A DNA stretch of 29,641 nt from Roseibacillus sp. (lineage in GTDB: Bacteria > Verrucomicrobiota > Verrucomicrobiia > Verrucomicrobiales > Akkermansiaceae), in NCBI GenBank assembly GCA_965242925.1, contig CBDEUM010000003.1, forward strand, positions 1 to 29,641, written 5' to 3'. Of this stretch, positions 6,876 through 28,580 are shown in pieces. A model generated the notes under the pieces. That model saw nothing but the letters and a program-made list of their open reading frames with translations. It ran no database searches and was not told the origin of the DNA. Within the stretch, counting starts at the first letter, position 1; each line of letters begins with the position of its first letter. A program made the position numbers and the translations under genes.

Positions 6876-7138
6876 GAACTGAGGGACGTAGGCGATGGCG
6901 ATGGTTCTACCGAACCACCCTTCCGACGTCAGCACAAAAATCGGGGAGCTTATCGGCAAAATTCCCTGTGTTTGCGGGAGTTTTCTAACCTCGGAATGGT
7001 AGCTGTAATCGCTGCATGGCCGCTTTTCTGCTTCGAGTGTGGAAAGCCCGATTGAGAATTCGGATGCGACGTTTAAGGAGATTAACCCGGATCAGAAGGT
7101 GACATTTACGCACCCGGCACGTTAACATGTTCATGCGA

Positions 7139-7190: not shown

Positions 7191-9149
7191 CTATTCTCTT
7201 GGAGCCTTCACGATCCGGTCAACCGCATGCTTAGTCACGATATTCCCTTTCGCCCCGCGTCCCTTGACCGCAATTTCACCAAACTGGAATAGACGACTCA
7301 CGTTCCGGAGGCGCAAGGCCGGCTTAAGATGGATGAGCACCGTATTCAAGGCGCTCTCCTCCTCGGAGTCATGGACCACCAAGTAGAAAACCCGCGTTCC
7401 CGCCGTGCCCCTGCCCAACTCATAGATCTTGTCACGGGTCACTCCCCCGATCCGAAAACGTTTGGACAAGACGGCACCATCCCGCCCATCGCGGTAGATC
7501 ATTGAATAAATCTTTTCCTCTCCCTTGCGGAACACAGCCACATGGACCGGGCGTTTTCCCACGAAGGCCTTGTTCGAGACCTTCAGCACCCGCATCTTTC
7601 CGTCCTGTGAGATCGCAATGATATCATCGAGTCGTGAACACTTCTCGATGGCCTTTTCGCGCTTGAGCCCCAGTCCCGCAAATCCGTTCTTTTCATCGAC
7701 GTAGAGCGTCTCGGTGGACGCTACCACCTGGGTGCGGTCAACTCTTTCAAATTCCCCTTCATCAGTCCGGGGTTCACGATCCTTGCCATACTTCTTCTGA
7801 AGGTTCTTGTAATACCTTATGGCGTAGCGGGTGAGACTGCTGAGATTCTTCTGGGTCTCTGCGATGCCATCCTCCAGATCCCTGATCTCCTCGTCGGCCC
7901 GGAAGCTGTCATACTTCGAGATGCGCTTGATTCTGATTTCGGTGAGACGGATGATGTCATCCCGCGTAATTTCCCTCCGAAAGCGCTTCCTGTATGGCTT
8001 GAGCCCCTTGTCAATGGCATTGATCACGGCCTCCCAAGTGTCGCATTCCTCAATGTCGCGGTAGATCCGGTTTTCAATGAAGATCTTCTCAAGCGACCCG
8101 AAGTGCCACTTCTCCTCCAGTTCGCTCAACCGGATCTCGAGCTCCCGCTTGAGAAGATCCCTGGTCTGAAGAGCGGAGCGTTTGAGAATCTCGCTCACCC
8201 CCAGGAACTGAGGTTTCCCATCCGCTATCACACAGGCGTTTGGCGAGATGCTCATCTCGCAATCGGTGAAGGCGTAGAGGGCGTCGCGAACCGATTCCGG
8301 TTCGCTTCCCGCGGAGAGATGGACAAGAATGTCAGCCTCGTCCGCCGTGTTATCCTCGATCCGTGAAATCTTGATTTTTCCCTTTTCCTGGGCGCCGACA
8401 ATGGAGGCCTGGAGCGAGGTAGTGGTGGTCCCCCAGGGAACCTCGAAGATGCGCAACAGGTTCCTCTTGACGACCTCGATCTTGGCCCGCACCCGGACCC
8501 GCCCCCCCCGCAATCCGTCGTTGTACTCGCTGGCGTCCATGAGCCCCCCGGTCGGGAAGTCAGGAACGATCTCAACCTTCTGCTTGCGCAGGACCCGAAT
8601 GCACTGCTCGATCAGTTCGTTGAAATTGTGCGGAAGAATCTTGCAGGCGAGGCCGACGGCGATCCCCTCCCCCCCCTGCGCGAGAAGAAGCGGAAACTTC
8701 ATGGGGAGGGTGATGGGTTCCTTGTTCCGCCCGTCATAGCTGCGAGTCCAGTCAGTGGTCTTCGGATTGAACGCCACTTCAAGGGCGAAGGGAGTCAGGC
8801 GGGCCTCGATATATCGACCGGCGGCGGCACGATCGCCGGTAAGGACATTTCCCCAGTTTCCCTGCGTGTCGATCAGCAGATCCTTCTGTCCGATCCCGAC
8901 CAAGGCATCCTCAATCGCAACATTCCCGTGCGGGTGGTACTTCATCGTGTCACCCACGATGTTGGCCACCTTGTTGTAGCGGCCATCTTCGATCTGACGC
9001 ATGGCATGGAGAATCCGCCGCTGCACCGGTTTCAGGCCGTCTCCGAGATGGGGCACGGCCCGCTCCATGATCACGTAGCTTGCGTAATCGAGGAAGTAAT
9101 CGGAGTACATCTCCCCCAGACTTCCGTGCTCCGTGCCCTTGTCGCTCAT
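7191..9149 (-). CDS. parC: DNA topoisomerase IV subunit A
   Basis: DGLKPVQRRIL, MKYHPHG, catalytic Tyr in AAAGRYIEARL, PDFPTGG. It is short (652 aa) and has no canonical GyrA-box, which favours ParC over GyrA. Confidence 0.9.
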   Translation of the reverse strand: MSDKGTEHGSLGEMYSDYFLDYASYVIMERAVPHLGDGLKPVQRRILHAMRQIEDGRYNKVANIVGDTMKYHPHGNVAIEDALVGIGQKDLLIDTQGNWGNVLTGDRAAAGRYIEARLTPFALEVAFNPKTTDWTRSYDGRNKEPITLPMKFPLLLAQGGEGIAVGLACKILPHNFNELIEQCIRVLRKQKVEIVPDFPTGGLMDASEYNDGLRGGRVRVRAKIEVVKRNLLRIFEVPWGTTTTSLQASIVGAQEKGKIKISRIEDNTADEADILVHLSAGSEPESVRDALYAFTDCEMSISPNACVIADGKPQFLGVSEILKRSALQTRDLLKRELEIRLSELEEKWHFGSLEKIFIENRIYRDIEECDTWEAVINAIDKGLKPYRKRFRREITRDDIIRLTEIRIKRISKYDSFRADEEIRDLEDGIAETQKNLSSLTRYAIRYYKNLQKKYGKDREPRTDEGEFERVDRTQVVASTETLYVDEKNGFAGLGLKREKAIEKCSRLDDIIAISQDGKMRVLKVSNKAFVGKRPVHVAVFRKGEEKIYSMIYRDGRDGAVLSKRFRIGGVTRDKIYELGRGTAGTRVFYLVVHDSEEESALNTVLIHLKPALRLRNVSRLFQFGEIAVKGRGAKGNIVTKHAVDRIVKAPRE

Positions 9150-9455
9150 CAGTGCCCTGCGGGAAAGTTAAGAAGTCCTAATCGGCCAGGCAAGTGCCGA
9201 AGGGCAGTCTTTCATGCTGCCCATAGCCGGTCCGGGGCTTTGCTGGGGCCTGCCCGACTGGGTGGCCATCACCAAAAGTCTGGGCAAGTCTTTCGGGGGA
9301 ATTCCCCCATAAGACGTTGCCTGACCTTCTCCTGCCCCTTTCTTCTGCCCGGGGACGCGGAGGGAATTGAAGGAAAAGAAATTCGGCGCGATTTCAGTCT
9401 TCCGGGTGAGTAATGGCATCCCTGGTCCAGGGGCGTGCCCGTCGCGCGAATGTCC

Positions 9456-11309
9456 CTACTCTCCGTCTCCCCGGTCTACATCCTCCCGCAGGTTGTTGAT
9501 GATATACTCCTGACGGTGGGGGGTGTTCTTGCCCATGTAGAAGGAAAGCATCTCACTGAGGCCCCTTCCCTCCTCCATAAGAACCGGATCAAGGCGCATC
9601 TCGGCTCCGATCATGAACTTGAATTCATGTGAGGAGATTTCCCCCAGGCCCTTAAACCGGGTAATTTCCGAATTCTTTCCCAGCAATTGGAGAGCGGCCT
9701 CCTTCTCCTGCTCGTCAAAGCAGTAATCGGTCTGCTTCTTAGTCCGAACCCGGAAGAGAGGGGTCTGAAGAATGTAGAGATGCCCCTCCCGAATAAGCTC
9801 GGGAAAAAACTGCAGGAAGAAGGTGAGGAGAAGGAGGCGGATGTGCATCCCATCGACATCCGCGTCAGTAGCGAGGATCACTTTGTTGTAACGAAGGTTC
9901 TCAATGCCCTCCTCGATGCCCAACGCCGCCTGCAGCAGAGCAAATTCCTCGTTCTCATAAACGACCTTGCGACTCAGGCCGAAGGAATTGAGAGGCTTGC
10001 CCCGAAGGGAAAAGACAGCCTGGGTTTCCGCATCGCGGCAGGAGGTGATCGAACCACTCGCGCTATCGCCCTCCGTAATGAAGACGGTGCTACGGGCCCG
10101 CCTCTTGTGCTTCGTATTCCAGTGGGCCCGGCAGTCTCTAAGTTTCTTGTTGTGCAACTTGGCCTGTCTGGCGCGATCGCGGGCCATCTTTTTGACCCCC
10201 TTCAATTCCTTCCGCTCACGCTCGGAGGCCAGGATACGTTTCTGTATGGCCTCGGCTGTCTCGGGATGCTTGTGAAGGTAATTGTCGAGTTGCTCGCGGA
10301 GAAAATTTCCAACATAGGTCCGGATGGTCTCTCCTTCCGGTTTCATGGCGGAGTTCCCCAGTTTCGTTTTGGTCTGACTCTCGAAGACAGGTTCCTCGAT
10401 GCGAAGGGAAACGGCCGCCTCCAGGCCGGCCCGGATATCAGCAGGATCGTATTGTTTCTTATAGAACTCGCGGAGAACCTTCACGATGGCTTCGCGGAAG
10501 GCGCCAAGATGGGTGCCTCCCTGAGTGGTGTGCTGTCCATTGACGAAGGAATAGTAGTCCTCGCTGCTTGATGGTGTGTGCACGAAGGCCACATCAATAT
10601 CCTTTCCCGAGAGAGCGATCGGTTCGTAGAGCGACGGCCCCTCCATTTCCTCCTTGAGAAGATCGAGCAGGCCGTTTTTGGAACGGAATTTCTGCTTGTT
10701 GAAAACCAGGGTGAGGCCCGGGTTGAGGTAGGCGTAGTAGCGGCACATGCGCTCCACGATGGAAGATTTGAAGGTCGTCTTGGCAGGAAAGATTTCACGG
10801 TCGATCTCAAAGGCCAGACGAGTGCCTGGCTTGATCTTGGAGGCCGACCGGGGACGCTTCATCTCCTCGCAAACTTCACCTCGGCTGAACTCAATCGCCT
10901 TGGTCTTTCCCTCCCGCCACGCCTGAATTTCAAAGAATTCGCTCAGGGCATTGACTGCCTTGATGCCCACCCCGTTGAGTCCGACGGCCTTCTTGAAAGC
11001 TTCGCTGTCATACTTCGCGCCCGTATTGATCTTGGCAGCGCAGTCCATGAGTTTGCCCAGAGGAATACCTCGTCCATAGTCGCGCACCTCCACCCGACCC
11101 TCAGCGTCAATCTCGATGCGGATTTCCCTGCCGTGCCCCATCACGAATTCATCCACCGCATTGTCGACGACCTCCTTCAGCAGGAGGTAGATGCCATCGT
11201 CCTGCACTGTGCCGTCACCAAGCTTTCCGATGTACATGCCCGGGCGGAGGCGAATATGCTCCCGCCAGTTGAGGGTCTTGATGTCTTCTTCGGTATAACT
11301 CGCTGACAT
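9456..11309 (-). CDS. parE: DNA topoisomerase IV subunit B
   Basis: [50 protein letters not shown] and RFKGLGE motifs; 617 aa; lies upstream of parC. Confidence 0.92.
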
Positions 11310-11446: not shown

Positions 11447-13990
11447 CTAGGGCTTCCGGATTCGGTAATACTGGGAACTCTCCTGGACAATAAAGAGGTC
11501 TGACACCACGAAACGGTGAACACCCGGCGAAACCTCTGTTCCGGTATCGGCGGTAAGGATTTCAAAGGGGAACCAGGGGTTTGTCCGACCCAGGTCGAGA
11601 CTGACGTCGAGACAGTAGATTGCGCCCGGTGCCATCCCTGAGACCTCAAGGGTGATTTCCTGCGTGCTTACATCGACATCAAAGCCGGTTATATCAATGA
11701 CCCCGATCGGAACCGCCCCGTCGAAGTCCCCCCCATCCACGCGGGTCCCCGGAGAGAAAAGGGTCCCCCCTGCTCCGTTGGCCGAGGAATGGGCCACCAG
11801 GGAACCGCTGCCATCCGGGTCCCGTGACATGGCCTGATCCAGAACCGAACCGTCATAGCTCATCTCCAGGAGATTGCTCCCCCCGCCCGGGGTTTTCAGG
11901 GAAATGGTATCACCACTGTTGTTAAGTCCGAGAAAGCCGGTGCTGGCTGTCTGGACCAGTGACCCGCCAAAGGATCCCGCAGGCGTTCCGCCACCGAACA
12001 CCACGATTGCACGTCCGGCCGCCAGCAGGGTTCCCGCGGAGAAGACGTGCCGCAGGCCCACCCCGTCGTGAATCTCATAGCCGCTGAGATCGAAAGGGTC
12101 ATCGGAGACATTCAGAAGTTCGATGAACTCATCCTGTGAAAAGTCGAGCGTTCCGTCGCGGTTGGCATCCCCTCCGGGATTAGGCGGATCGGAGAGGAAT
12201 TCGTTGATGACCAGAGACGAAAAGGGGCCATCCCCGTCATCTTCCACTTCGAAGGTGGCTGCTGCGGTGCCATACCCGGGGGCGATGGCACGCACCTGCA
12301 CGGATTGGACTCCATCCTGAGCAATGTCATCTTCCGCATTGATCGTGAACGTCAACGAACTCTCTCCCGGGTCGAAGGTGGCGCGGTCTCCCACGTCCGC
12401 TAGGGCTTCAGTCGGATCGTTGATCCGGATCAGGACGTCCAGCTGTCCACTCAGGTCACCCGTTCGTCGCAGGAGCGCAGTAATTGATCCTCCATTCTCG
12501 TTCATGCTGTTTGCACTGAGACTGAAACTGAGCTCGCCGAGGGGCGGACAAAACTCGGTGCCATCCGCTCTCGTTCCGGGCGAAAAGAGCCTTCCCCCCG
12601 CACCCGCGGCGCTGCCATGTTGAACAAAGGGGCCGGTGACATCCACGTCACGCGTCAGAGATTGGTCATTGCCTCCCTCCCCCCCGTAGCTGACCGAGGC
12701 GACCGTCTCACCCAGAGAGTCAAGAACAGTCACGGTGTCACCGGCATTGTTCAGGCCAAGTCGAATGCTGCTGACCACCTGAAAGATTGCGGACCCCCCC
12801 AGATTGTCAATCGATCCGCCCCCGAAGACCACGATCGCACAGTCCGCCGGAAGGATTGTGTCCGCGGGAAAGATATGTCGCTGTTCGACTCCGTCGTGCA
12901 AGGACCAGCCGCTCATATCGAGAGCGATTCCACTCTTGTTCACGATCTCGACAAACTCGTCGTCACCACTGTCAGTGTCTCCATCCTCGTTGGCGTCACC
13001 CGCCTCCCCGGAGGGTATATCGGCCAGAATCTCGTTGATCATGATCGGGGAGAAGTCCCCGTCGTCCGTCACGTTCAACTCCGCCACTCCCTCGGAAAAT
13101 CCGGTGGCAGACGCCGTGATGATCACCGATTGGGTTCCGTCCTCAATCAGGTCGTCCACCGCATCGATCGACATTGCAAAAGTGGCGGAGGCCTGGCCGG
13201 CCGGAATTTCCCGATCCGGATCAGGGATTACCGCTTCGCTGAAATCACTGGACTCAAGTGTCAGCGCCAGAACGCTGTCGGTGGATCCGGTACGGGTGAC
13301 GGTGACGTCCACCAGATCCACTCCACCATCTTCAGGGATCGTGCCTGGGTTCAGGGAGACGGTCAGCGACTCGCTGGCGGTGGCCGCGAAGCTCTGCAGA
13401 TACCAGGCATCGTCGGGTGCCGCGTTATCAACATCACTATTGCTTCTTTCTCCCCACACGATCGGGAAATCGAGCACGGTAGACCCGCCAATGGTGTCGT
13501 AACCCTTGCCCGGACCCAGTCGATAGAAGCTCTTGTTCGCTCCCTCGTTTCCCGAATCCGTAAAGGAAACCGCATCCGCGATGGCGGCATGACTCCCGAT
13601 CGCCCCCTTCGATGTATCGTAAAGCACCACACTATCGTCGCCATTGAAATTGGGTGTAGCGTTGGTAGCAACATCAGCGGTGGCGTAAGCGGGAAGGGCC
13701 GCACCGGTATTGGCCAGCAGAAGGTAGCCATTGGCAGGAATGGAGAGTCCCTCGAGGTCATCCTGGTATCGCGGACTGGCCCCATCCTGCTTCCATTCCT
13801 CGGTCGCCGCATTGGCCCATCTCGTCAGGACGAATCCGTCAAGGGAGACGGGCACCGCATCGGTGTTACTGAGTTCGATCCACTTGTTGAAGCTCGCTCC
13901 CTCGTAGTACTGGGAGATCAGGACTTCCCCCGAGGCATGGAGGGAGAGAGCGGCGGCGAGCACGGAAAGGAGATAGAGACGGAAGGCCAT
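11447..13990 (-). CDS. Secreted lamin-tail-domain (3x LTD) protein with two Ig/Calx-beta-like domains
   Basis: Signal peptide, then LTD starts LISQYYEG..NKWIEL, INEILAD..DEFVEIVN and INEFLSD..DEFIELLN, with LNNxGDT and FSPG motifs. Ig-like segments contain VTVTRTG and IDAVDDLIEDG. Confidence 0.88.
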   Translation of the reverse strand: MAFRLYLLSVLAAALSLHASGEVLISQYYEGASFNKWIELSNTDAVPVSLDGFVLTRWANAATEEWKQDGASPRYQDDLEGLSIPANGYLLLANTGAALPAYATADVATNATPNFNGDDSVVLYDTSKGAIGSHAAIADAVSFTDSGNEGANKSFYRLGPGKGYDTIGGSTVLDFPIVWGERSNSDVDNAAPDDAWYLQSFAATASESLTVSLNPGTIPEDGGVDLVDVTVTRTGSTDSVLALTLESSDFSEAVIPDPDREIPAGQASATFAMSIDAVDDLIEDGTQSVIITASATGFSEGVAELNVTDDGDFSPIMINEILADIPSGEAGDANEDGDTDSGDDEFVEIVNKSGIALDMSGWSLHDGVEQRHIFPADTILPADCAIVVFGGGSIDNLGGSAIFQVVSSIRLGLNNAGDTVTVLDSLGETVASVSYGGEGGNDQSLTRDVDVTGPFVQHGSAAGAGGRLFSPGTRADGTEFCPPLGELSFSLSANSMNENGGSITALLRRTGDLSGQLDVLIRINDPTEALADVGDRATFDPGESSLTFTINAEDDIAQDGVQSVQVRAIAPGYGTAAATFEVEDDGDGPFSSLVINEFLSDPPNPGGDANRDGTLDFSQDEFIELLNVSDDPFDLSGYEIHDGVGLRHVFSAGTLLAAGRAIVVFGGGTPAGSFGGSLVQTASTGFLGLNNSGDTISLKTPGGGSNLLEMSYDGSVLDQAMSRDPDGSGSLVAHSSANGAGGTLFSPGTRVDGGDFDGAVPIGVIDITGFDVDVSTQEITLEVSGMAPGAIYCLDVSLDLGRTNPWFPFEILTADTGTEVSPGVHRFVVSDLFIVQESSQYYRIRKP
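11720..13372 (-). repeat. Intragenic tandem duplication of an Ig-like + LTD module (~275 aa x2)
   Basis: Paired motifs: AVDDLIEDGTQSV/AEDDIAQDGVQSV, GDANEDG/GDANRDG, RHIF/RHVF, LGLNNAGDTV/LGLNNSGDTI, GAGGRLFSPGTRADG/GAGGTLFSPGTRVDG. Boundaries are approximate. Confidence 0.85.
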
Positions 13991-14130
13991 GGCGGGCGGG
14001 AAGCACTGGGCTTCGGCCGTATCCTTAAACGAGGGGCGGCAAAGCAGTCAAGCAGCCCCGCGCCGTATCTTCCTCCAAATTCCTTGAGATGCGGTGAAGG
14101 TGAAGCAACCCGTGCTGTCCCTTACCCGTC

Positions 14131-14158
14131 AAACGAAAGGGACCCCCGGAGGGCCCCT
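14131..14158 (-). terminator. Intrinsic terminator after the M15 peptidase gene
   Basis: Minus strand reads AGGGGCCC-TCCGG-GGGTCCCT followed by TTCGTTT, 30 bp past the stop codon. Confidence 0.65.
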
Positions 14159-14188
14159 CTTCGATTCCACAGGCGGAAATACCGATCC

Positions 14189-14827
14189 TTACCAATCCAC
14201 GTTGTAACCGCGGGTATCGACGTGGGTGAAGCGCTCGTAGCGCCCCACTCCTCCACGGAATTTCCCTTCCTCGCGAATATTGCGGGCTGCGCGTGCAACA
14301 GCGTAAGTAGAGGCATGGAAACTGAGATCCAGCGCAAAGTTCTGCTTGTGGCAGGAGTTCGGCTTCGCGCCCGGGCACCGAGCGTTATAGGATGGACTGC
14401 GGAAGGCGGAGGTCACAAGTTTCACCGAAGTTCCAAGGCGAACCGAGATCTCGTCCACAACTCTGAGCGTTTCGCTTATATGGCGCCAGTCCTCGCGCAC
14501 CGGGAGTGTGTTCCAGACGCTTCCTTTCTTCTTGGCATGCGACAAAACCACTTGCTGTACGCTTATATGTTTCAGGCGCAGGGCCGAGATGTAGCGGGCG
14601 TATGCATGCAGTTCCCCTCCCTGGCGACGGACCCATTCCTCCGGAAGCTCATCGATGTCGAGATTCGCGCTCCCGCTGAAGAGGGACAGCGCCTCCGTCG
14701 GGGTTGTGGCGGCAAACAGGCCGCTGGCGGTCAGGAGCGAGTTTCTCAGGAAAGAACGTCGACTCGCAGAAGCAAATTTACCGGTTGGAAGAAAGTCGCC
14801 GCTCCGGCGCAGGGGCTGACAAGGCAT
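14189..14827 (-). CDS. Tat-exported peptidase M15 (YcbK/MepK-like Zn peptidoglycan peptidase)
   Basis: Twin-arginine SRRSFLR plus h-region; SAFRSPSYN, NSCH-x6-D (HKQNFALD) and THVDTRG motifs. ATG 14827 chosen; the ORF is open to 14842. Confidence 0.88.
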   Translation of the reverse strand: MPCQPLRRSGDFLPTGKFASASRRSFLRNSLLTASGLFAATTPTEALSLFSGSANLDIDELPEEWVRRQGGELHAYARYISALRLKHISVQQVVLSHAKKKGSVWNTLPVREDWRHISETLRVVDEISVRLGTSVKLVTSAFRSPSYNARCPGAKPNSCHKQNFALDLSFHASTYAVARAARNIREEGKFRGGVGRYERFTHVDTRGYNVDW

Positions 14828-15147
14828 CGGCGATACTGTCAAATATCCAGAGGATGATGACCAGTCTAAAATGGTTCGTCAGCCCCGGAGAATAGCAGGG
14901 ATCACCTGCACGTCCCTTCCGCTGAGTATTAATTTTAATCTTACATCCCTGTAGTCCGGATCAGGCGGCGAAGTCACCTCCCTCATTGTAAAATTAAGGT
15001 CCGGGAGTCCCATTAGTTTGAAAAATAATTCAGACAGTCAATCTATCCGAATCGGGTGCCTTTTGGGGTTCCTTCCATGAGATTTTCACCTCATTGAGGC
15101 CGCAGCCCTTGCCAGAGTCCGCCCAACAGCCTGTCCTTCCCTCCTCC

Positions 15148-16760: not shown

Positions 16761-17594
16761 CTATTCCTCTTCGTCGATCACGATGGAGGTGGGATCCCAG
16801 TCAATCTCCGGATAGTTCATGTCGAGAGATTTCAAGGTATCGACCATGATCCGGGCCACACAGAGATTGCGATACCACTTGTGGTCGGCCGGGATGACAT
16901 ACCAGGGTGCGCAGCTGGTGGAGGTCCGTTCTATGAGATCCTCGTAGCAGCGCATGAACTCCTCCCACCGCTGGCGATCTCTCAGGTCGTCAGGGTTGAA
17001 CTTCCAGTGCTTGGATGGGTTTTTCAGGCGCGCTTCCAGGCGGCGCTTCTGCTCCCCTTTGGAGATGTGGAGGAAAAACTTCAGGATGACCGTCCCTTCC
17101 TCCGCCAGCATTCGCTCGAAATCGATGATATGCCGGTAGCGCCGTTCCCACACCTTTTCGGGAAGGATTTTTTTCACCCTTACCGCGATGACGTCTTCGT
17201 AGTGGCTGCGATTGAAGATCGTGATCTTGCCGTTGCGGGGGACGTGCTGGTGCACGCGCCAGAGAAAGTCCCGGGCGAGTTCCGCCTGAGTAGGTTTTTT
17301 GAAGGATTTCACGTTGATCCCCTGAGGATCGACCCGTGAAAAGACATGTTTGACGCAGCCATCCTTCCCCCCCGTGTCCATGGCCTGGATCACCACGAGC
17401 ACCCGGCGTTTGTCTTCCGCGTAGAGAACCTTCTGAAGCGACTGCAACTGTTCGCGTAATTGATCGAAATATGGCAGGTGTTCTTCCTTCCCTCCCTCCA
17501 GGAAAAGGGCCTTCTCATCCTGATCGATGTTGTCGAGAGAAAGTTTCGCTCCCTCGGGGATCAAATACCGTTCAAGCGCTCCACGGGCTGGCAT
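16761..17594 (-). CDS. ppk2: Polyphosphate kinase 2 family protein, probably class III
   Basis: QAMDTGGKDG, SFKKPT..EL..DFLWR, FNRSHYEDV, KFFLHISK, KHWKF and PWYVIPADHKW. ATG 17594 gives 277 aa. Confidence 0.93.
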   Translation of the reverse strand: MPARGALERYLIPEGAKLSLDNIDQDEKALFLEGGKEEHLPYFDQLREQLQSLQKVLYAEDKRRVLVVIQAMDTGGKDGCVKHVFSRVDPQGINVKSFKKPTQAELARDFLWRVHQHVPRNGKITIFNRSHYEDVIAVRVKKILPEKVWERRYRHIIDFERMLAEEGTVILKFFLHISKGEQKRRLEARLKNPSKHWKFNPDDLRDRQRWEEFMRCYEDLIERTSTSCAPWYVIPADHKWYRNLCVARIMVDTLKSLDMNYPEIDWDPTSIVIDEEE

Positions 17595-17818
17595 GGTTCG
17601 GAAAGTGTGGAAGTTCGTCCGTATGCTGGCAAGCCCACAGGTCGACCGATGCAAATCGTTTTCCGGCCACGATGAAATTATCGCAATTCCCTGAGAATCA
17701 GCTGAAACTTTCCTCCCCCTCAAACTTCCCGGGGCAACCGTTCCCCGTTCTCCTTGTCCGGCCCCGTGGGCCTCTGTAAAATCACTCCTCCCCCCACTGA
17801 CCGTTCGCCCCTCCCCCA

Positions 17819-19369
17819 ATGGAATCCGCTCCCACTTCCGGTCCCGAACTCCAGGCCACTATTCACATAGGGGCCAGTGCGATCTCCATGCTACTGAGTC
17901 ATCCTGGCAACGAGGAGGGGATTCCTGGAGAGCAGATCGAATTCCTTGAGAAGCCGCTTCCCCTCGCCCGGGATATTTTTCGCCACGGCCGCATCAAGCG
18001 GTCCACCACCGAGCACGCGGTTGAAATCCTCCATGGTTTTGAAGAAGCGCTCCGCGAGACCGGAGCCGACCTTCGCCAGGTAACCCGCGCAGTCGTAAGC
18101 AATATTCTGGCCGAGGCCGAGAATAGAGAAACCTTTCTCAATCGACTCAAGATCGCCTGTAATCTCGGCCTTGAAATCCTCGACGACGGGGAGATGACCC
18201 GCCTCATCTACCTGAAAACTCAGAGACGGGTCCGCGACACCCCCAGCATGCAGAAGCGGAATACGCTGGTCGTCCATGTAGGCCCCGGCAACACCCGTGT
18301 TCTTCTCTTCCGCCAGGGCAACATCGATCGCTACACCAGTTATCGAATGGGTGCTCACCGTACCGCGGAGGCCGTAGAAGCCTCCCATTCCGACGGGGGC
18401 GCTCTCATACGGGTCATCCGCGAGCAGATCTCAGGACAAGTCAGCCAGATTTTCTACGATTATGAAAACGAGGGCGTTGAGAACCTGGTGGTCATCGGCT
18501 TCCAGATCCAGTATCTCGTCCCCTTCCTCTCCAAGGATCATGCCACGAAGATCACCCTCAAGTCCCTCCAGACCTTCGTCAGGGAATTGGCCGAGATTTC
18601 CGAAGAGGAATGCGTCCACCGTTACCAGTTCGATTACCATGCTGTTGATGCGGTCGTGCCCGCGCTCCTTGCAAATCTTGCCATCGCCGAGATCTTCGGA
18701 CTGAAGTCTCTGCGAATTCCTGACAGCGATTTCGAACGCGGACTTCTGACGGACCTTCCGCGCATCCCGACTCTGACCACCGGCTTTCATGACGAGGTTA
18801 TCCGCGCGGCACGAATCATCGGCGAAAGGTACAAGGTGGATATCAATCACGCCGACCAGGTCGCCAGACTGAGCGGCCAACTCTTCGAGCAAACCGCGAC
18901 CCTGCATAACCTTGAGAAGCGTGACGCCCTGCTTCTGGAGATCGCGGCGCTCCTTCATGAGTGCGGCGGGTATGTGAGCCCGCACTCCCACCACAAGCAC
19001 TCCCAGTATCTCATTCAGAACAGCGAGATCTTCGGGCTTTCCGGAACCGACGTGATGACTATTTCCCTGGTTGCAAGATATCATCGCCGTTCCGGACCTC
19101 GACTGCGCCATGCCGACTACCGGAATCTGTCTGCCGACGACCGGATCAGGGTCTCCAAGCTCGCAGCACTTCTACGGGTGGCCGATGCCCTGGAACGAGC
19201 GCACACTCAGCGAATCCGGGATTTCTCGGTCGAGATATCCAGGCACAAGATCCAGCTCAACCTCGAAGGGGTAAGCGATGCTGCCGTTGAACGGCTCGCC
19301 ATGCAGAGCAAGGGAGATCTCTTCCACGATGTCTTCGGCCTCGAAGTCGTCATTGCGGAAGCCCCCTAG
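17819..19369 (+). CDS. Ppx/GppA-family protein with C-terminal HD-like domain and degenerate active site
   Basis: Long-Ppx architecture (RLIY, HADQVARL, ALLHECG, HHKHS.YLI.NS, VARYHR, LRVADAL). The ASKHA motifs are altered to IHIGASA and VHVGPGNTR. Confidence 0.9.
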   Translation: MESAPTSGPELQATIHIGASAISMLLSHPGNEEGIPGEQIEFLEKPLPLARDIFRHGRIKRSTTEHAVEILHGFEEALRETGADLRQVTRAVVSNILAEAENRETFLNRLKIACNLGLEILDDGEMTRLIYLKTQRRVRDTPSMQKRNTLVVHVGPGNTRVLLFRQGNIDRYTSYRMGAHRTAEAVEASHSDGGALIRVIREQISGQVSQIFYDYENEGVENLVVIGFQIQYLVPFLSKDHATKITLKSLQTFVRELAEISEEECVHRYQFDYHAVDAVVPALLANLAIAEIFGLKSLRIPDSDFERGLLTDLPRIPTLTTGFHDEVIRAARIIGERYKVDINHADQVARLSGQLFEQTATLHNLEKRDALLLEIAALLHECGGYVSPHSHHKHSQYLIQNSEIFGLSGTDVMTISLVARYHRRSGPRLRHADYRNLSADDRIRVSKLAALLRVADALERAHTQRIRDFSVEISRHKIQLNLEGVSDAAVERLAMQSKGDLFHDVFGLEVVIAEAP

Positions 19370-19448
19370 AGAGATCATCATCCGTCCCGCCGGGATTGAA
19401 GGCGGCCTTCCAACCCTTCGTCTTCAGTCGCCAGATCTTCCTTCCGAT

Positions 19449-21557
19449 ATGCCTTTCATCAATCGCGAACTGTCCTGGCTTGAGTTCAACCAGCGTGTGC
19501 TGGAGCAGTCCAGGCAAAGCAGGACCCCTCTTCTTGAGCGCGTCAAGTTCCTCGCCATTGCGGATTCCAACCTTGACGAATTCTTCCAGGTGCGGGTGGG
19601 CGGACTGGTGATGCTCCAGAGCTCCGGGAGCCGCGTTCCCGACATCGCAGGCCTTACGCCATCCCAGCAAATCGCATTGATCCGTAAACGAGTGACCGCC
19701 TTTGCCGAGATTCAGTACGATCTACTCAATAACGCGCTCATGCCCGCCTTGGCTGAAGCCGGCATCAGGATTCTCAAACTCAACGAGCTTTCCCAGGGAC
19801 AGGATCTTCAGGTCGACAGTTTCTTCTCGGAGATGATCTATCCCCTCCTTACTCCTCTCGCCATCGACGAGGAAGATCCGCCACCCTCCATCCAGAACCT
19901 GCGCCTTTTCATTGCATGCCGTATCGATAACCCGGAGCAGCAGGAGGGGCGATACGCCTTTGTCCCCCTGCCGGAAAACCTGCCCCGCTTCATTTCCGTG
20001 CAGTCCAGCAAAGGCAGCAGCTTCGTCGCCATTGAGGACATTGTGCAGCGCCAGCTCGGGGAGCTTTTCCCCGGAGAGACGGTGGGAGCCAGCGCCCTTT
20101 TCCGGATCACCCGCAACAGCGACATCGCGGTTCAGGAGGAGGACGCCATCGACCTGGCCGGAGAGATGGCGGAGGTTCTTGCTGCCCGTCGCATCGGCAC
20201 GACCATCCGGGTCCAGATCGCCAAGGGCACCCCCCGCGATCTCCTGCGACTGGTCCAGGAAGTGACCCGTTCCGGACCCGCCGAACTTTACCGCATGGGA
20301 GGCCTGCTCCAACTCGCCGACCTGATGCAGATCAGCCAACTCAGCGACCATCAAGAACTCAGCAACCCTCCCTGGCCTCCCCTGCCTTCGCCACTGATCG
20401 ACTACAATACGCCCATCTTTGAGGTGATCAGTGCCAGGGACGTCCTTCTTTTCCATCCTTACGAATCGTTCGATCCGGTCATTCGCATGCTGGAGGAGGC
20501 GGCCGAGGATCCCGATGTTCTTGCCATCAAGCAGGTTCTTTACCGCACCGCCAGTGATTCGCGCATCATTTCGGCATTAATCCGGGCCGCTGAAAACGGA
20601 AAGCAGGTCACCGTCCTCGTCGAACTGAAGGCCCGCTTTGATGAAGCCCGGAACCTGCAACGCGCCGAGATGCTGCAACGGGCCGGGGTTCAGATTGTCT
20701 ACGGGGTGAAGGATCTCAAGACCCACGCCAAGGTCACTCTTATCGCACGCAACGAGGACGGACGACTCAAGCGCTATGTTCATCTTGGCACCGGCAACTA
20801 CAACGAGACTACCGCGCAACTCTACACCGACGTCTCCTACCTCACCTGTCGCCCCCAACTGGTCGCGGATGCATCTCACTTCTTCAACGCGGTGACCGGG
20901 CGCTCCAAACTCATGCGCCTGCAGAAGATCTGCGCTGCTCCGGTGCACTTGAAGAACCGCATCATTGAACTCATCGAGGCCGAGGCTGATCGGGCGCGAC
21001 ACGGAGAACCGGCCCTCATCATGGCCAAGTGCAATTCGCTCCAGGATCCCGATGTGATCAAAACCCTTTACCGGGCTTCCCGGGCCGGCGTGAAGATCAA
21101 GCTGAACATCAGAGGCATCTGCTGTCTAAAGACCGAAAGTAAGCGTTACTCAAAGAACATCGAAGTGCGTTCAATCGTAGACCGTTATCTCGAGCACGCC
21201 CGGATCTTCTACTTCCACCACGGAGGCGATCCCGAAGTCTACTTCTCTTCGGCGGACTGGATGACGCGCAATCTGGAAAAGCGGGTGGAATTACTTGTCC
21301 CGGTGGAAGACCCTCCCAGCAAGAAGCGACTCATCCGGATCCTGGAGGCAGCGTTTCGTGACAATACCAACGCCTTCCGAATCCTGAAAGACGGGAGCAG
21401 TATTCCTGTCGCACCCGCCAAGGGTGAAAAGAGGTTCCGGTTCCAGGAACACCTCTACAAGACCGCGAGCAAGGCCGCCAAGATCCGGCAGCGCGAGCGC
21501 TCCACCACCTTCACTCCCCATCGCCCTCCCGGGCGACTTGATGACAAGTTGACATAG
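19449..21557 (+). CDS. ppk1: Polyphosphate kinase 1
   Basis: FINRELSWLEFNQRVL, SNLDEFFQVRV, HPYESF, VELKARFDE, phospho-His KTHAK, GTGNYN, RYLEHARI and SADWMTRNL. Start is ATG 19449. Confidence 0.97.
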   Translation: MPFINRELSWLEFNQRVLEQSRQSRTPLLERVKFLAIADSNLDEFFQVRVGGLVMLQSSGSRVPDIAGLTPSQQIALIRKRVTAFAEIQYDLLNNALMPALAEAGIRILKLNELSQGQDLQVDSFFSEMIYPLLTPLAIDEEDPPPSIQNLRLFIACRIDNPEQQEGRYAFVPLPENLPRFISVQSSKGSSFVAIEDIVQRQLGELFPGETVGASALFRITRNSDIAVQEEDAIDLAGEMAEVLAARRIGTTIRVQIAKGTPRDLLRLVQEVTRSGPAELYRMGGLLQLADLMQISQLSDHQELSNPPWPPLPSPLIDYNTPIFEVISARDVLLFHPYESFDPVIRMLEEAAEDPDVLAIKQVLYRTASDSRIISALIRAAENGKQVTVLVELKARFDEARNLQRAEMLQRAGVQIVYGVKDLKTHAKVTLIARNEDGRLKRYVHLGTGNYNETTAQLYTDVSYLTCRPQLVADASHFFNAVTGRSKLMRLQKICAAPVHLKNRIIELIEAEADRARHGEPALIMAKCNSLQDPDVIKTLYRASRAGVKIKLNIRGICCLKTESKRYSKNIEVRSIVDRYLEHARIFYFHHGGDPEVYFSSADWMTRNLEKRVELLVPVEDPPSKKRLIRILEAAFRDNTNAFRILKDGSSIPVAPAKGEKRFRFQEHLYKTASKAAKIRQRERSTTFTPHRPPGRLDDKLT

Positions 21558-26332: not shown

Positions 26333-26460
26333 AGAGCTCGCAGATGGGTCTTCATCACGCAAGCCCCCTCGCAACTTTGGCTGAATAGTTTGTCATTTTC
26401 TCCGGTGATCTGCGTGCCTATTCGGGCTTGCGCTCCGAAGTGCGGACCTCACCATCCGGC

Positions 26461-27564
26461 ATGCAAGTGGATGGGCGCCTCTATCGCACGGTTTGGAGCG
26501 TTCCTGCCAAGGGAGTGGTACGCGTCATCGACCAGCGGCATCTTCCGTGGAATTTTGTCCTCCAGGACCTGGCCACCGTCGAAGAAATCGCGGTTGCCAT
26601 CAGGGAGATGCACGTCCGCGGGGCCGGGTGTATCGGGGCCACCGCCGGTTATGGAATGTGGCTGGCAGCCCGGGAATCGAGTGGCTCCATGAAACGACTG
26701 GAACAGCTCGCCGAACTCCTCACTGCTACGAGGCCCACCGCTCGAAACCTTTCATGGGCAGTCGAACGCCAACTCAATGTTCTCAAAGACCTTTCGCCTG
26801 ACCAGTGGGACCATGCTGCCTTGACTGAGTCGGAGGCCATTGCCGACGAGGATGCCTCATGGTGTGAACGGATCGGGGAGCATGGTCTCCTCCTGCTCTC
26901 CGGCATCCACGAGAAGAAGTCGAGACAGGATCCGGTGCAGGTTCTCACCCACTGCAATGCCGGATGGCTCGCCTTCACTGACTGGGGTTCGGCCACCGCA
27001 CCAGTTTATGCGGCCCATCGAGCCGGGATACCCATTCACGTCTGGGTCGACGAGACCCGACCCCGGAACCAGGGGAGCCGCCTCACGGCGTGGGAATTGC
27101 AAAACGAGGGAGTCCCCCATACGGTCATCGCTGACAATGCCGGGGGCCACCTCATGCAACACGGCAAGGTCGACATCGTGATTACCGGCTCCGATCGGAC
27201 GACCTGCACCGGGGATGTCGCCAACAAGATCGGGACTTATCTCAAAGCTCTGGCCGCTCACGACAACGACATTCCCTTCTACGTCGCCCTCCCCTCTTCC
27301 ACTATCGACTGGGAATGCCGGGACGGGGTGCGGGGGATCCCCATTGAGGAGCGTGGCGGGAGCGAGGTCTCCACCGTTGAAGGACTTACCCACGAAGGAG
27401 TCGTCCAAGGGGTCAATCTCGTCAACCCTGGCTCTCCGACCAGCAACTACGCCTTTGACGTGACACCCTCACGCCTCGTGACTGGATTGATCACCGAACG
27501 CGGGATCTGTGATGCTACCGCGGAGGCGATTGCGATTCTCTTCCCTCCAACCGCACGCAGGTGA
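26461..27564 (+). CDS. mtnA: S-methyl-5-thioribose-1-phosphate isomerase
   Basis: IDQRHLP, MHVRGA, TRPTARNL, LTHCNAGWLA, VDETRPRNQG, ANKIGTY and AFDVTP. Start is ATG 26461. Confidence 0.93.
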   Translation: MQVDGRLYRTVWSVPAKGVVRVIDQRHLPWNFVLQDLATVEEIAVAIREMHVRGAGCIGATAGYGMWLAARESSGSMKRLEQLAELLTATRPTARNLSWAVERQLNVLKDLSPDQWDHAALTESEAIADEDASWCERIGEHGLLLLSGIHEKKSRQDPVQVLTHCNAGWLAFTDWGSATAPVYAAHRAGIPIHVWVDETRPRNQGSRLTAWELQNEGVPHTVIADNAGGHLMQHGKVDIVITGSDRTTCTGDVANKIGTYLKALAAHDNDIPFYVALPSSTIDWECRDGVRGIPIEERGGSEVSTVEGLTHEGVVQGVNLVNPGSPTSNYAFDVTPSRLVTGLITERGICDATAEAIAILFPPTARR

Positions 27565-28580
27565 TGCCTGGCATTGTCCGCACTCTCAAGAATGGTTACT
27601 GGGATCGCACCACCGTAGTCCGCGCCAGTGAGGGAACCCTCCGGGTCCGCAAGGAAAGCAGGGAAAGCGAAACCCCGGGCCCGTGGGCGCACGAGGCCCT
27701 CCGAAATGAGATCGCCTACCTGGAGAGTCTTCCAGAGGCTGCCGCAAAATTCTTCCCGACCCTTCTCTCCTCATGGGATGAGCAGACAATCGGGTATGAG
27801 ATCCCCTATTATCAGGATCGTCCCGATCTCGCCCGCCTCGTTCTGGACGGGGTTCCCGGTCCTGTTGATTGCGGAGAAATCCAGAACCAGCTCGCGGAAG
27901 CGGTTCTCGGCGGACTCCACTCCGCGGAACAGGCGGGAGGCGCTCCCTTCTGCGCCCACCTTGAGGCGGTTCTCAGCGAATCCCTGGAGACCCTTTCAGC
28001 CGTCGAAGTCTTCGAACCGATTGTGAATGGAACTCGTCTTCACCTGAACGGTCACCCGGTGCCTGGTCTTCGGGCCTCCCTCGCCCGACTCCGCGCCTCG
28101 GGAATCCTCAAACACCTCGCCCGGGAAACTTCCGTCCGCCTGCACGGGGATCTTATCCTCGAGAACATGCTCTGGTCACCCCTGCTCCTCATCGATCCGG
28201 TCTCGGTCACAGGACTGACCATGGGGCATCCCCTCTTCGATCTGGTCAAGCACGAGTCCTACGCCCGGGGGGAGCTGTATGCCATCCGGGAGGAACTGGT
28301 CACCGCTTGCCGCCTCTCCGACGGTTCCTACTCTCTGAAAATTCCGTGGGACGCCGAAGCCCTGCTCCCCTTTGATCGGATTGACCTGACCACCCAATTC
28401 CGGAAGCAATTCATCAGGCAGCATGGCGGAATTAATCCCAGCTTCTATCTCCTCATAGACGCCTACTTCTCCCTCGTGATGGCCCGCAACACTACCGGGC
28501 TACACCAGTTTGCCCGGGTCCTCAAGGGGTGCCAGAGTTTGGCCAGGGCCGGAGACCCAGATCCCGTCCTGCCCTGCTAG
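27561..28580 (+). CDS. APH/choline-kinase-fold phosphotransferase of unknown substrate
   Basis: VRK (beta3 Lys), NEI (helix C Glu), catalytic loop LHGDLILENML, LLIDP and FDLVK. The start overlaps the mtnA stop (GTGATG). Confidence 0.8.
   Translation: MMPGIVRTLKNGYWDRTTVVRASEGTLRVRKESRESETPGPWAHEALRNEIAYLESLPEAAAKFFPTLLSSWDEQTIGYEIPYYQDRPDLARLVLDGVPGPVDCGEIQNQLAEAVLGGLHSAEQAGGAPFCAHLEAVLSESLETLSAVEVFEPIVNGTRLHLNGHPVPGLRASLARLRASGILKHLARETSVRLHGDLILENMLWSPLLLIDPVSVTGLTMGHPLFDLVKHESYARGELYAIREELVTACRLSDGSYSLKIPWDAEALLPFDRIDLTTQFRKQFIRQHGGINPSFYLLIDAYFSLVMARNTTGLHQFARVLKGCQSLARAGDPDPVLPC

Follow-up and report, generated by a model that had tools for sequence, protein, structure and literature searches.

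A Ppx-like protein with replaced catalytic residues, encoded upstream of ppk1 in Verrucomicrobiales, as a candidate partner of PPK1

In the exopolyphosphatase of D. radiodurans (DrPPX), residues D7, R86, E114, D136 and E143 are reported to be conserved across 124 species, and the D7A, E114A, D136A and E143A mutants to lose most of their activity; the same report describes a REG motif (PMC11234463). A degenerate relative has been described from Lc. paracasei, whose Ppx1 is reported to be inactive, to be essential for polyphosphate (polyP) and to enhance Ppk in vitro (Corrales et al.; bioRxiv 10.1101/2023.12.22.573107), and a review states that the cluster II Ppx1 proteins of Lactobacillaceae, Clostridia and Negativicutes may activate Ppk1, by a mechanism that it gives as unknown (PMC12248826). 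Here we describe a gene for a Ppx-like protein that lies directly upstream of ppk1 in a 29,641-nucleotide stretch of DNA, hereafter the window, from the marine verrucomicrobial genome of Roseibacillus sp. (assembly GCA_965242925.1, 89.9% complete; contig CBDEUM010000003.1, positions 1 to 29,641). On balance, we lean towards the view that this gene encodes a Ppx-derived pseudoenzyme acting as a non-hydrolytic bound partner of PPK1.

The protein belongs to a clade in which the second phosphate-binding loop (P-loop 2) of Ppx reads H-x-G-P-G-N-T-R, referred to here as the HxGPGNTR clade. Like cluster II Ppx1, it is a four-domain Ppx homologue encoded directly upstream of ppk1; the P-loops and the equivalent of E. 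coli R93 are degenerate in both, as often is the equivalent of E121. Whereas Lc. paracasei Ppx1 is reported to have DISSGSVE and to lack P-loop 1, the HxGPGNTR sequence is invariant and far more uniform. The clade also falls in a different phylum, with a function that is predicted only, and its locus differs from those of cluster II in the presence of a divergent ppk2. Unlike the ppx1–ppk1–ppx2 cluster, with its active two-domain ppx2, the window genome, at its 89.9% completeness, has no ppx2 downstream or elsewhere. Because the motif patterns differ, the comparison suggests an origin independent of the Bacillota cluster II Ppx1. The concept of a non-catalytic Ppx acting on the kinase has a Bacillota precedent, which the initial annotation of this locus had mentioned for lactobacilli and which the two sources above bear out. 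A literature search at listing level found no published work on the HxGPGNTR clade or on a Ppx–PPK1 complex.

Fold and catalytic positions of the Ppx-like protein

The Ppx-like gene occupies positions 17819–19369 on the + strand and consists of an intact open reading frame (ORF) of 516 amino acids, with Roseibacillus and Akkermansiaceae metagenome-assembled genomes (MAGs) as its closest named relatives. The stop codon ends at 19369, leaving a gap of 79 bp to the ATG of ppk1 at 19449. Pfam analysis found the Ppx-GppA domain III (PF21447) at 8.6e-30 and, weakly, the N-terminal domain (PF02541) at 1.2e-13, both above their cut-offs. The intact frame, the retained HD-like domain and the 79-bp spacing had all been given in the initial annotation, and were confirmed. 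The architecture is that of the Ppx/GppA family: domains I–II with the fold of acetate and sugar kinases, Hsp70 and actin (ASKHA), followed by the HD-like domain III and domain IV, the latter two (18764..19366, + strand; residues 316–516; PF21447) being of ordinary Ppx type. Residues 277–507 match D. radiodurans PPX at 3.1e-31. An AlphaFold2 model built with 21 clade sequences reached a predicted local distance difference test score (pLDDT) of 89.6 and a predicted template-modelling score (pTM) of 0.84, and its top Foldseek matches were A. baumannii PPX (8jgx) and E. coli PPX (1u6z), with TM ≈0.65 and E 1e-25 over ≈515 columns. In fold, domain order and ordinary C-terminal half, the protein resembles the canonical four-domain enzymes of E. 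coli (1u6z/2flo), A. baumannii (8jgx) and D. radiodurans (8jgo). It falls well below the NCBIfam cut-offs for exopolyphosphatases (75 vs. 864 bits for NF008108 and 58.9 vs. 307 bits for TIGR03706) and for GppA (66.1 vs. 624 bits for NF008260).

Individual residues were compared in a MAFFT alignment to E. coli K-12 Ppx (from NC_000913.3), anchored by the invariant flanking glycines and T149. Unlike in the canonical enzymes, every catalytic residue was found to be replaced: D17, R93, E121, D143, S148 and E150, as well as the REG motif. All the motif substitutions listed in the initial annotation were seen in this alignment. P-loop 1, which in exopolyphosphatases reads DxGS[N/Y]S and carries the Mg2+-binding D17, has become IHIGASA (17858..17881, + strand; residues 14–21), with D17 replaced by H16, S20 by Ala and N21 by Ser, and with the glycine kept. 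The equivalents of the general base E121 and of R93, which positions it, are M126 and A98. The former lies in the sequence DDGEMTRL (18182..18205, + strand; residues 122–129), where E120 is kept as E125; A98 (18110..18112, + strand) corresponds to R86 in DrPPX. P-loop 2, canonically [D/E]xGG[G/A]SxE, has become HVGPGNTR (18275..18298, + strand; residues 153–160), the signature of the clade, in which D143 is replaced by H153, G146 by P156, S148 by N158 and E150 by R160. In the α-linker, the REG motif reads FERG (18731..18742, + strand; residues 305–308) with its Arg and Glu swapped (R298/E299 to E306/R307), and VIGFQ stands in place of GASGT, the third ASKHA motif of the E. coli enzyme.

The five positions D17, R93, E121, D143 and E150 correspond to D7, R86, E114, D136 and E143 of DrPPX. 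According to titles in the PDB, the equivalent of E121 is the residue mutated by crystallographers in DrPPX (E114A), HpPPX (E143A) and ZmPPX (E137A). In the clade, this position is Met in 14 of the 15 rows of the tree described below, and the R93 position is variable, whereas Arg is found there in 113 of 125 non-clade relatives. The proposal that both phosphate-loop Asp residues had become His stood for the window protein (D17 to H16 and D143 to H153) and not for the first loop of the wider clade: H16 is His in all 22 loci examined, but the 15 clade rows have His in nine, Tyr in three, Phe and Asn in one each, and a gap in one. Five arginines that its relatives conserve have likewise been lost from the clade; their positions correspond to H24, R93, A98, K221 and R298 in E. 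coli. Since these cleft arginines were lost in addition to the acidic residues, the cleft was rebuilt, not merely disarmed.

A rebuilt cleft could still be catalytic. In that case, the protein would use a mechanism other than canonical Mg2+/Glu catalysis, for example one with a histidine nucleophile or another metal, to hydrolyse or transfer phosphate from polyP, a nucleotide or guanosine tetra- or pentaphosphate ((p)ppGpp). The glycines of the loops and T159, whose backbone binds phosphate in canonical Ppx, have been retained, E125 is nearby, and no stretch of the N-terminal half is more conserved than HxGPGNTR, which is maintained through synonymous codon changes in 48 genomes. The E121 position, in contrast, offers no acidic residue or obvious base, the occurrence of His, Tyr, Phe or Asn at the first-loop position rules out an essential role for it as metal ligand or nucleophile, and the five conserved arginines that bind substrate are gone. 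The nearest experimental case with degenerate motifs is also reported to be without detectable activity (bioRxiv 10.1101/2023.12.22.573107). We consider an enzyme of altered chemistry rather unlikely.

Alternatively, the cleft might bind inorganic phosphate, (p)ppGpp or a nucleotide without turnover and signal to PPK1 or polyP granules via the C-terminal half. The ASKHA cleft has been retained together with its Gly-rich loops, both without variation, (p)ppGpp binders occur in the family (the Foldseek matches include PPX/GppA complexes from H. pylori), and such a sensor would be compatible with the PPK1 contact predicted below. In the clade, IG(Y/F)(E/Q)IQ nevertheless replaces the third ASKHA motif, which is GASGT in E. 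coli and GGDxRF in the relatives, and at 66 bits the protein is far from the GppA cut-off of 624. A ligand sensor of this kind seems to us improbable.

Conservation and selection in the HxGPGNTR clade

The tree was built from the 150 nearest representatives of 50%-identity clusters, of which 138 of at least 450 amino acids were kept and 12 dropped; together with the window protein and E. coli Ppx, the set comprised 140 rows. The 15 nearest rows (window included, down to 36% identity) all have H-x-G-P-G-N-T-R and all lack R93, and in the FastTree analysis these 15 of 140 rows formed one branch, with a Shimodaira–Hasegawa-like support of 100 and a stem length of 0.61. The non-canonical pattern was kept in all 22 public clade loci examined, two partial loci (L005 and L025) having been excluded from this check. 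When a profile of the clade was run against 81 genomes of the order, exactly one strong match (E ≤ 1e-181) was obtained in 48 genomes, spanning 13 of the 27 genera sampled, and none in the other 33. Searching with a back-translated HxGPGNTR pattern picked out these same 48 genomes, with one match within each Ppx-like gene and none for the reversed control, and the codons of the motif vary synonymously among these genomes. In three genomes of one genus (G026, G050 and G078), the pattern had a second exact match outside the Ppx-like gene.

The ratio of nonsynonymous to synonymous substitution rates (dN/dS) was 0.084 for the Ppx-like gene (0.090 for the N-terminal half and 0.074 for the C-terminal half) and 0.077 for ppk1, all from the single comparison with the 95%-identical locus L004 (dS 0.26), the loci L012, L018 and L019 (67–72% identical) being saturated at dS values of 1.6–3.5. 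The N-terminal halves of clade proteins have an identity of 0.231 to those of non-clade relatives, which among themselves reach 0.294. The corresponding values for the C-terminal half are 0.397 and 0.401, and the N/C identity ratio within the clade, 0.75, is close to the usual 0.73. This looks like one burst of remodelling of the N-terminal half followed by renewed constraint. As judged from these alignments, the data show that a single rebuilding of the cleft, placed at the clade's base, produced the invariant H-x-G-P-G-N-T-R loop, and that purifying selection has acted on this loop ever since.

The initial annotation had asked whether orthologues keep the substitutions under a low dN/dS, and had named canonical motifs in close orthologues as a sign of recent decay. 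Close and distant orthologues alike were non-canonical in their motifs, in 22 of 22 loci, 15 of 15 clade rows and 48 of 81 genomes, and the dN/dS was comparable to that of ppk1. The recent inactivation of a ppx now being lost would account for the missing catalytic residues, its only point in favour, and for nothing else: the frame is intact at a dN/dS of 0.084, the motif is kept down to 36% identity and in 48 genomes of 13 genera, and contigs from RNA libraries (four runs, three studies) cover parts of the gene, DNA carry-over being possible. The conservation data refute recent decay, and we give it next to no probability.

The nearest relatives of the clade, at 30–36% identity, form a ppk1-linked sister clade of 70 rows, partly from Pirellulaceae and Planctomycetaceae. 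These proteins keep D/E17, R93, D/E143 and E150, while E121 is replaced by Val, Ile, Leu, Thr or Ala in 58 of the 70 rows. Either E120 takes over as the base in these proteins, or they may also be impaired. In the Planctomycetota, ppk1 lies downstream of Ppx in three out of three loci, and the Ppx is either canonical (L028) or changed at E150 only (L029 and L030). No HxGPGNTR gene was found in the 20 loci fetched from other classes of the phylum, 18 of which (L037–L054) have a Ppx homologue directly upstream of ppk1. In some of these homologues, E121 is replaced by Ala, Gly, Val, Ile or Ser with the other residues kept; others have a loop reading GTGS, with D143 replaced by Ala, Ile or Val and E150 by Ile, Leu or Gln. 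From these alignments, the loss of catalytic residues seems to be recurrent in ppk1-linked Ppx genes. Six of the loci (L037–L042) also contain, next to ppx–ppk1, a gene of ≈500 amino acids whose similarity to the Ppx-like protein is confined to the C-terminal, HD-like part of the latter, and the three scanned by Pfam (L037:4033-5514; L041:4692-6374, – strand; L042:991-2496) were found to be fusions of Ppx domain III to CHAD, a polyP-granule binding domain according to literature cited in bioRxiv 10.1101/2023.12.22.573107. A 49%-identical HxGPGNTR gene accompanied by ppk2 and ppk1 in the verrucomicrobial order was found on a 2955-bp contig titled as a Thermodesulfobacteriota MAG (L007), which is probably mis-binned.

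Linkage to ppk1 and the predicted PPK1 contact

A tblastn search of the whole window genome found a single Ppx-like gene, a single PPK1 and a single PPK2, together at the same locus, and no other E. coli Ppx-like sequence or canonical Ppx in this 89.9% complete genome. Across the order, PF02541 gave at most one match per genome above its cut-off, and no second match in any of the 48 carriers; since this profile under-detects the clade (39 of 81 genomes vs. 48 of 81 by the clade profile), it was used only to look for second canonical copies. A clearly canonical short Ppx was present in only one genome, G063, which is without the clade gene. That the clade gene is the sole Ppx/GppA homologue found in the window genome and in the 48 carriers also speaks for an enzyme of altered chemistry.

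The downstream gene, ppk1 (19449..21557, + strand), encodes 702 amino acids and scores 811 bits against TIGR03705. Its start at ATG 19449 (MPFINREL) is common to all 18 aligned orthologues. A longer ppk1 ORF beginning at 19278, overlapping the Ppx-like gene, was rejected, as the orthologues give it no support. Conserved ppk1 synteny had been proposed as a check on the locus, and the linkage was indeed retained: in 22 of 24 clade loci, the next gene downstream is ppk1, in the same orientation, the exceptions being one locus with no room for ppk1 (L006) and one without it (L017). When coordinates were compared by hand, the pair was adjacent and co-oriented in 31 of the 48 carrier genomes and on different contigs in the remaining 17. 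PPK1 itself was found in 80 of the 81 genomes. In each of the 48 carriers, PPK1 reaches 726 bits or more against TIGR03705, and among the 32 non-carriers with PPK1, 29 score at most 686 bits, the exceptions being G002, G043 and G055; the type of PPK1 thus tracks the presence of the Ppx-like gene.

We then co-folded PPK1 residues 1–684 with the N-terminal half of the Ppx-like protein (residues 1–315), each with its own alignment. The score was 0.63 (0.63, 0.62 and 0.64 in the separate runs), compared to 0.00 for the best of three controls, so that this check, which the initial annotation had suggested, came out in favour of a predicted contact. Among solved complexes, 116 of 157 had reached the mark used, and among mismatched pairs two of 215; these counts are only rough with user-made alignments. 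The runs shared at least 84% of their contacts, with a pLDDT of at least 83 for the partner. Because no PDB entry is common to the PPK1 matches and the Ppx matches, the result is not the memory of a solved complex.

On the Ppx-like side, the main predicted contact is the β-hairpin EQIEFLEKP (17930..17956, + strand; residues 38–46; clade consensus DFLEQP, L43 invariant), and the second is a helix (18035..18064, + strand; residues 73–82) with a nearly invariant E80. On the PPK1 side, the model places residues 358–361, 386–388, 415, 433–440 and 469–499 of domain C1 in the interface. From the co-fold and conservation together, the core of the predicted docking patch is PPK1 476–487, SHFFNAVTGRSK (20874..20909, + strand), and the interface is centred on FFNAVTGRSK (PPK1 479–488), ≈50 residues past the His of KTHAK, H426.

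The conservation of the interface was compared between 18 PPK1s adjoining a clade gene and 18 PPK1s from genomes of the order without one; of the 20 "without" sequences fetched, L075 and L076 were set aside beforehand as belonging to the high-scoring, Ppx-linked type. Twelve of the 22 predicted interface columns of PPK1 were conserved in the Ppx-linked set and different in the unlinked set, compared to 130 of 656 columns elsewhere (Fisher p = 4e-4) or, within C1 alone, 35 of 158 columns (p = 0.003). N480 and G484 were present in all 39 PPK1s adjoining any Ppx (the 18 clade-linked ones and 21 adjoining non-clade Ppx genes) and in none of the 18 unlinked ones. R485 and K487 were found in 17 and 18 of the 18 PPK1s paired with the HxGPGNTR type, respectively, and in none of the 21 paired with sister-type Ppx. 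With few independent lineages, these comparisons are hints, not proof. Of the 25 interface residues on the Ppx-like side, 20 are variable, four are shared with non-clade relatives and one is specific to the clade; the contact hairpin and helix as such are conserved in the non-clade relatives.

The initial annotation had proposed a conserved non-hydrolytic polyP/nucleotide sensor or partner of PPK1, with an enzyme of different chemistry as the alternative. The conservation of the motif, the dN/dS, the synteny and the co-fold support the non-hydrolytic proposal, with the loss of hydrolysis, the binding and an effect on PPK1 as predictions, and none of the observations that it had named as refuting was made. 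In the mechanism that we favour, the protein keeps the Ppx fold and ordinary C-terminal half around an N-terminal cleft without the acidic residues for Mg2+-dependent hydrolysis and without the five conserved arginines. The domain I hairpin (residues 38–46) and helix (residues 73–82) are predicted to dock on C1 of PPK1 at FFNAVTGRSK, just after the catalytic His. So bound, the protein might promote or stabilize polyP synthesis or hold the chain, much as Lc. paracasei Ppx1 enhances Ppk; the polymer could be held by the ordinary C-terminal half, and would be spent via the neighbouring PPK2 instead of being hydrolysed.

Several observations weigh against this reading. As the only Ppx/GppA homologue found in the window genome, the protein could still be needed in some phosphatase role, and an acidic residue, E125, persists immediately ahead of the position where the general base was lost. 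That H153, N158 and R160 are strictly invariant suggests that the cleft still does something specific; a pure scaffold would leave this invariance unexplained, which keeps both the altered-chemistry enzyme and the ligand sensor alive. The arginine losses, as far as can be read from the alignment, do not support canonical binding of a polyP end in the cleft. The 17 split pairs among the 48 genomes, some of them deep inside long contigs, mean that the operon is not obligatory. The co-fold score is a model's confidence, not a measurement, with binding predicted from user-made alignments, and the interface statistics compare two PPK1 lineages whose kinship inflates the p-values. Finally, because non-clade relatives have four of the 25 contacts on the Ppx-like side in common with the clade, which has just one of its own, any binding is probably ancestral, predating the loss of catalysis and separate from it.

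Gene neighbourhood and implications

Upstream of the Ppx-like gene and divergently transcribed lies ppk2 (16761..17594, – strand; PF03976, 5.9e-74); a ppk2 in this divergent position was found in 12 of 27 loci. The start codon of the long PPK2 ORF (16761-17819, – strand) is a TTG, overlapping the ATG of the Ppx-like gene at the first base of the latter. Because orthologue matches begin at residues 54–85 of this ORF, the real start is probably ATG 17594 (M76 of the long ORF), giving a protein of 277 amino acids and leaving a divergent intergenic region of 224 bp. A σ70-like promoter match lies upstream of the Ppx-like gene (17754..17782, + strand), which is a match to the consensus only, two having been found where 1.4 were expected. 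No terminator-like site was found in the 79-bp gap between the Ppx-like gene and ppk1. The RNA-library contigs are short and cover parts of both genes, mostly at 95–99+% identity. None among them bridges the whole 79-nt gap; one stops 36 nt past the stop codon of the Ppx-like gene, and another starts 42 nt before the ppk1 ATG. With DNA carry-over possible, these contigs establish neither expression nor co-transcription.

On the 3′ side, ppk1 is followed by a sulfatase gene on the opposite strand. Elsewhere in the window, at 26428-28580 (+ strand), an IF-2B-family (MtnA-like) gene overlaps an APH-family kinase gene by 4 bp, the two probably forming a methionine-salvage pair, and a nucleoside:H+ symporter gene follows on the opposite strand. 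The – strand carries a secretin with TPR repeats (4449-6959), a topoisomerase IV/gyrase A-like and B-like pair (7191-11309) and an 847-amino-acid protein with three lamin-tail domains (11447-13990). An ORF of 746 amino acids (12617-14857, + strand) that overlaps the lamin-tail gene matches no family and is unlikely to be a gene.

Genes of the HxGPGNTR type are annotated as exopolyphosphatase/GppA or HD-domain proteins, and a metabolic reconstruction that lists them among the enzymes of polyP degradation is probably in error. The clade bears on the open question of how PPK1 is switched on in bacteria. It represents a second, apparently independent lineage of degenerate Ppx, in another phylum and in 48 of the 81 genomes sampled from the order, and offers a cleaner case than that of the Bacillota, as none of the catalytic residues is left and the genome that carries the gene yielded no canonical Ppx. 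The clade also provides a concrete predicted interface, residues 38–46 and 73–82 of the Ppx-like protein against residues 476–487 of PPK1, with a PPK1 patch that tracks the Ppx neighbour. A wider proposal, which we put forward tentatively and with more doubt than confidence, is that the ppx–ppk1 pairs of Planctomycetota and Verrucomicrobiota encode a physical Ppx–PPK1 complex in which the domain I hairpin and helix clamp C1 near the catalytic His, and that the Ppx of Verrucomicrobiales was converted once into a dedicated non-hydrolytic subunit, with a rebuilt His/Asn/Arg cleft for handling the nascent chain or a phosphoryl group. If this is true, the same docking mode would explain the activation of Ppk1 by degenerate Ppx1 in lactobacilli.

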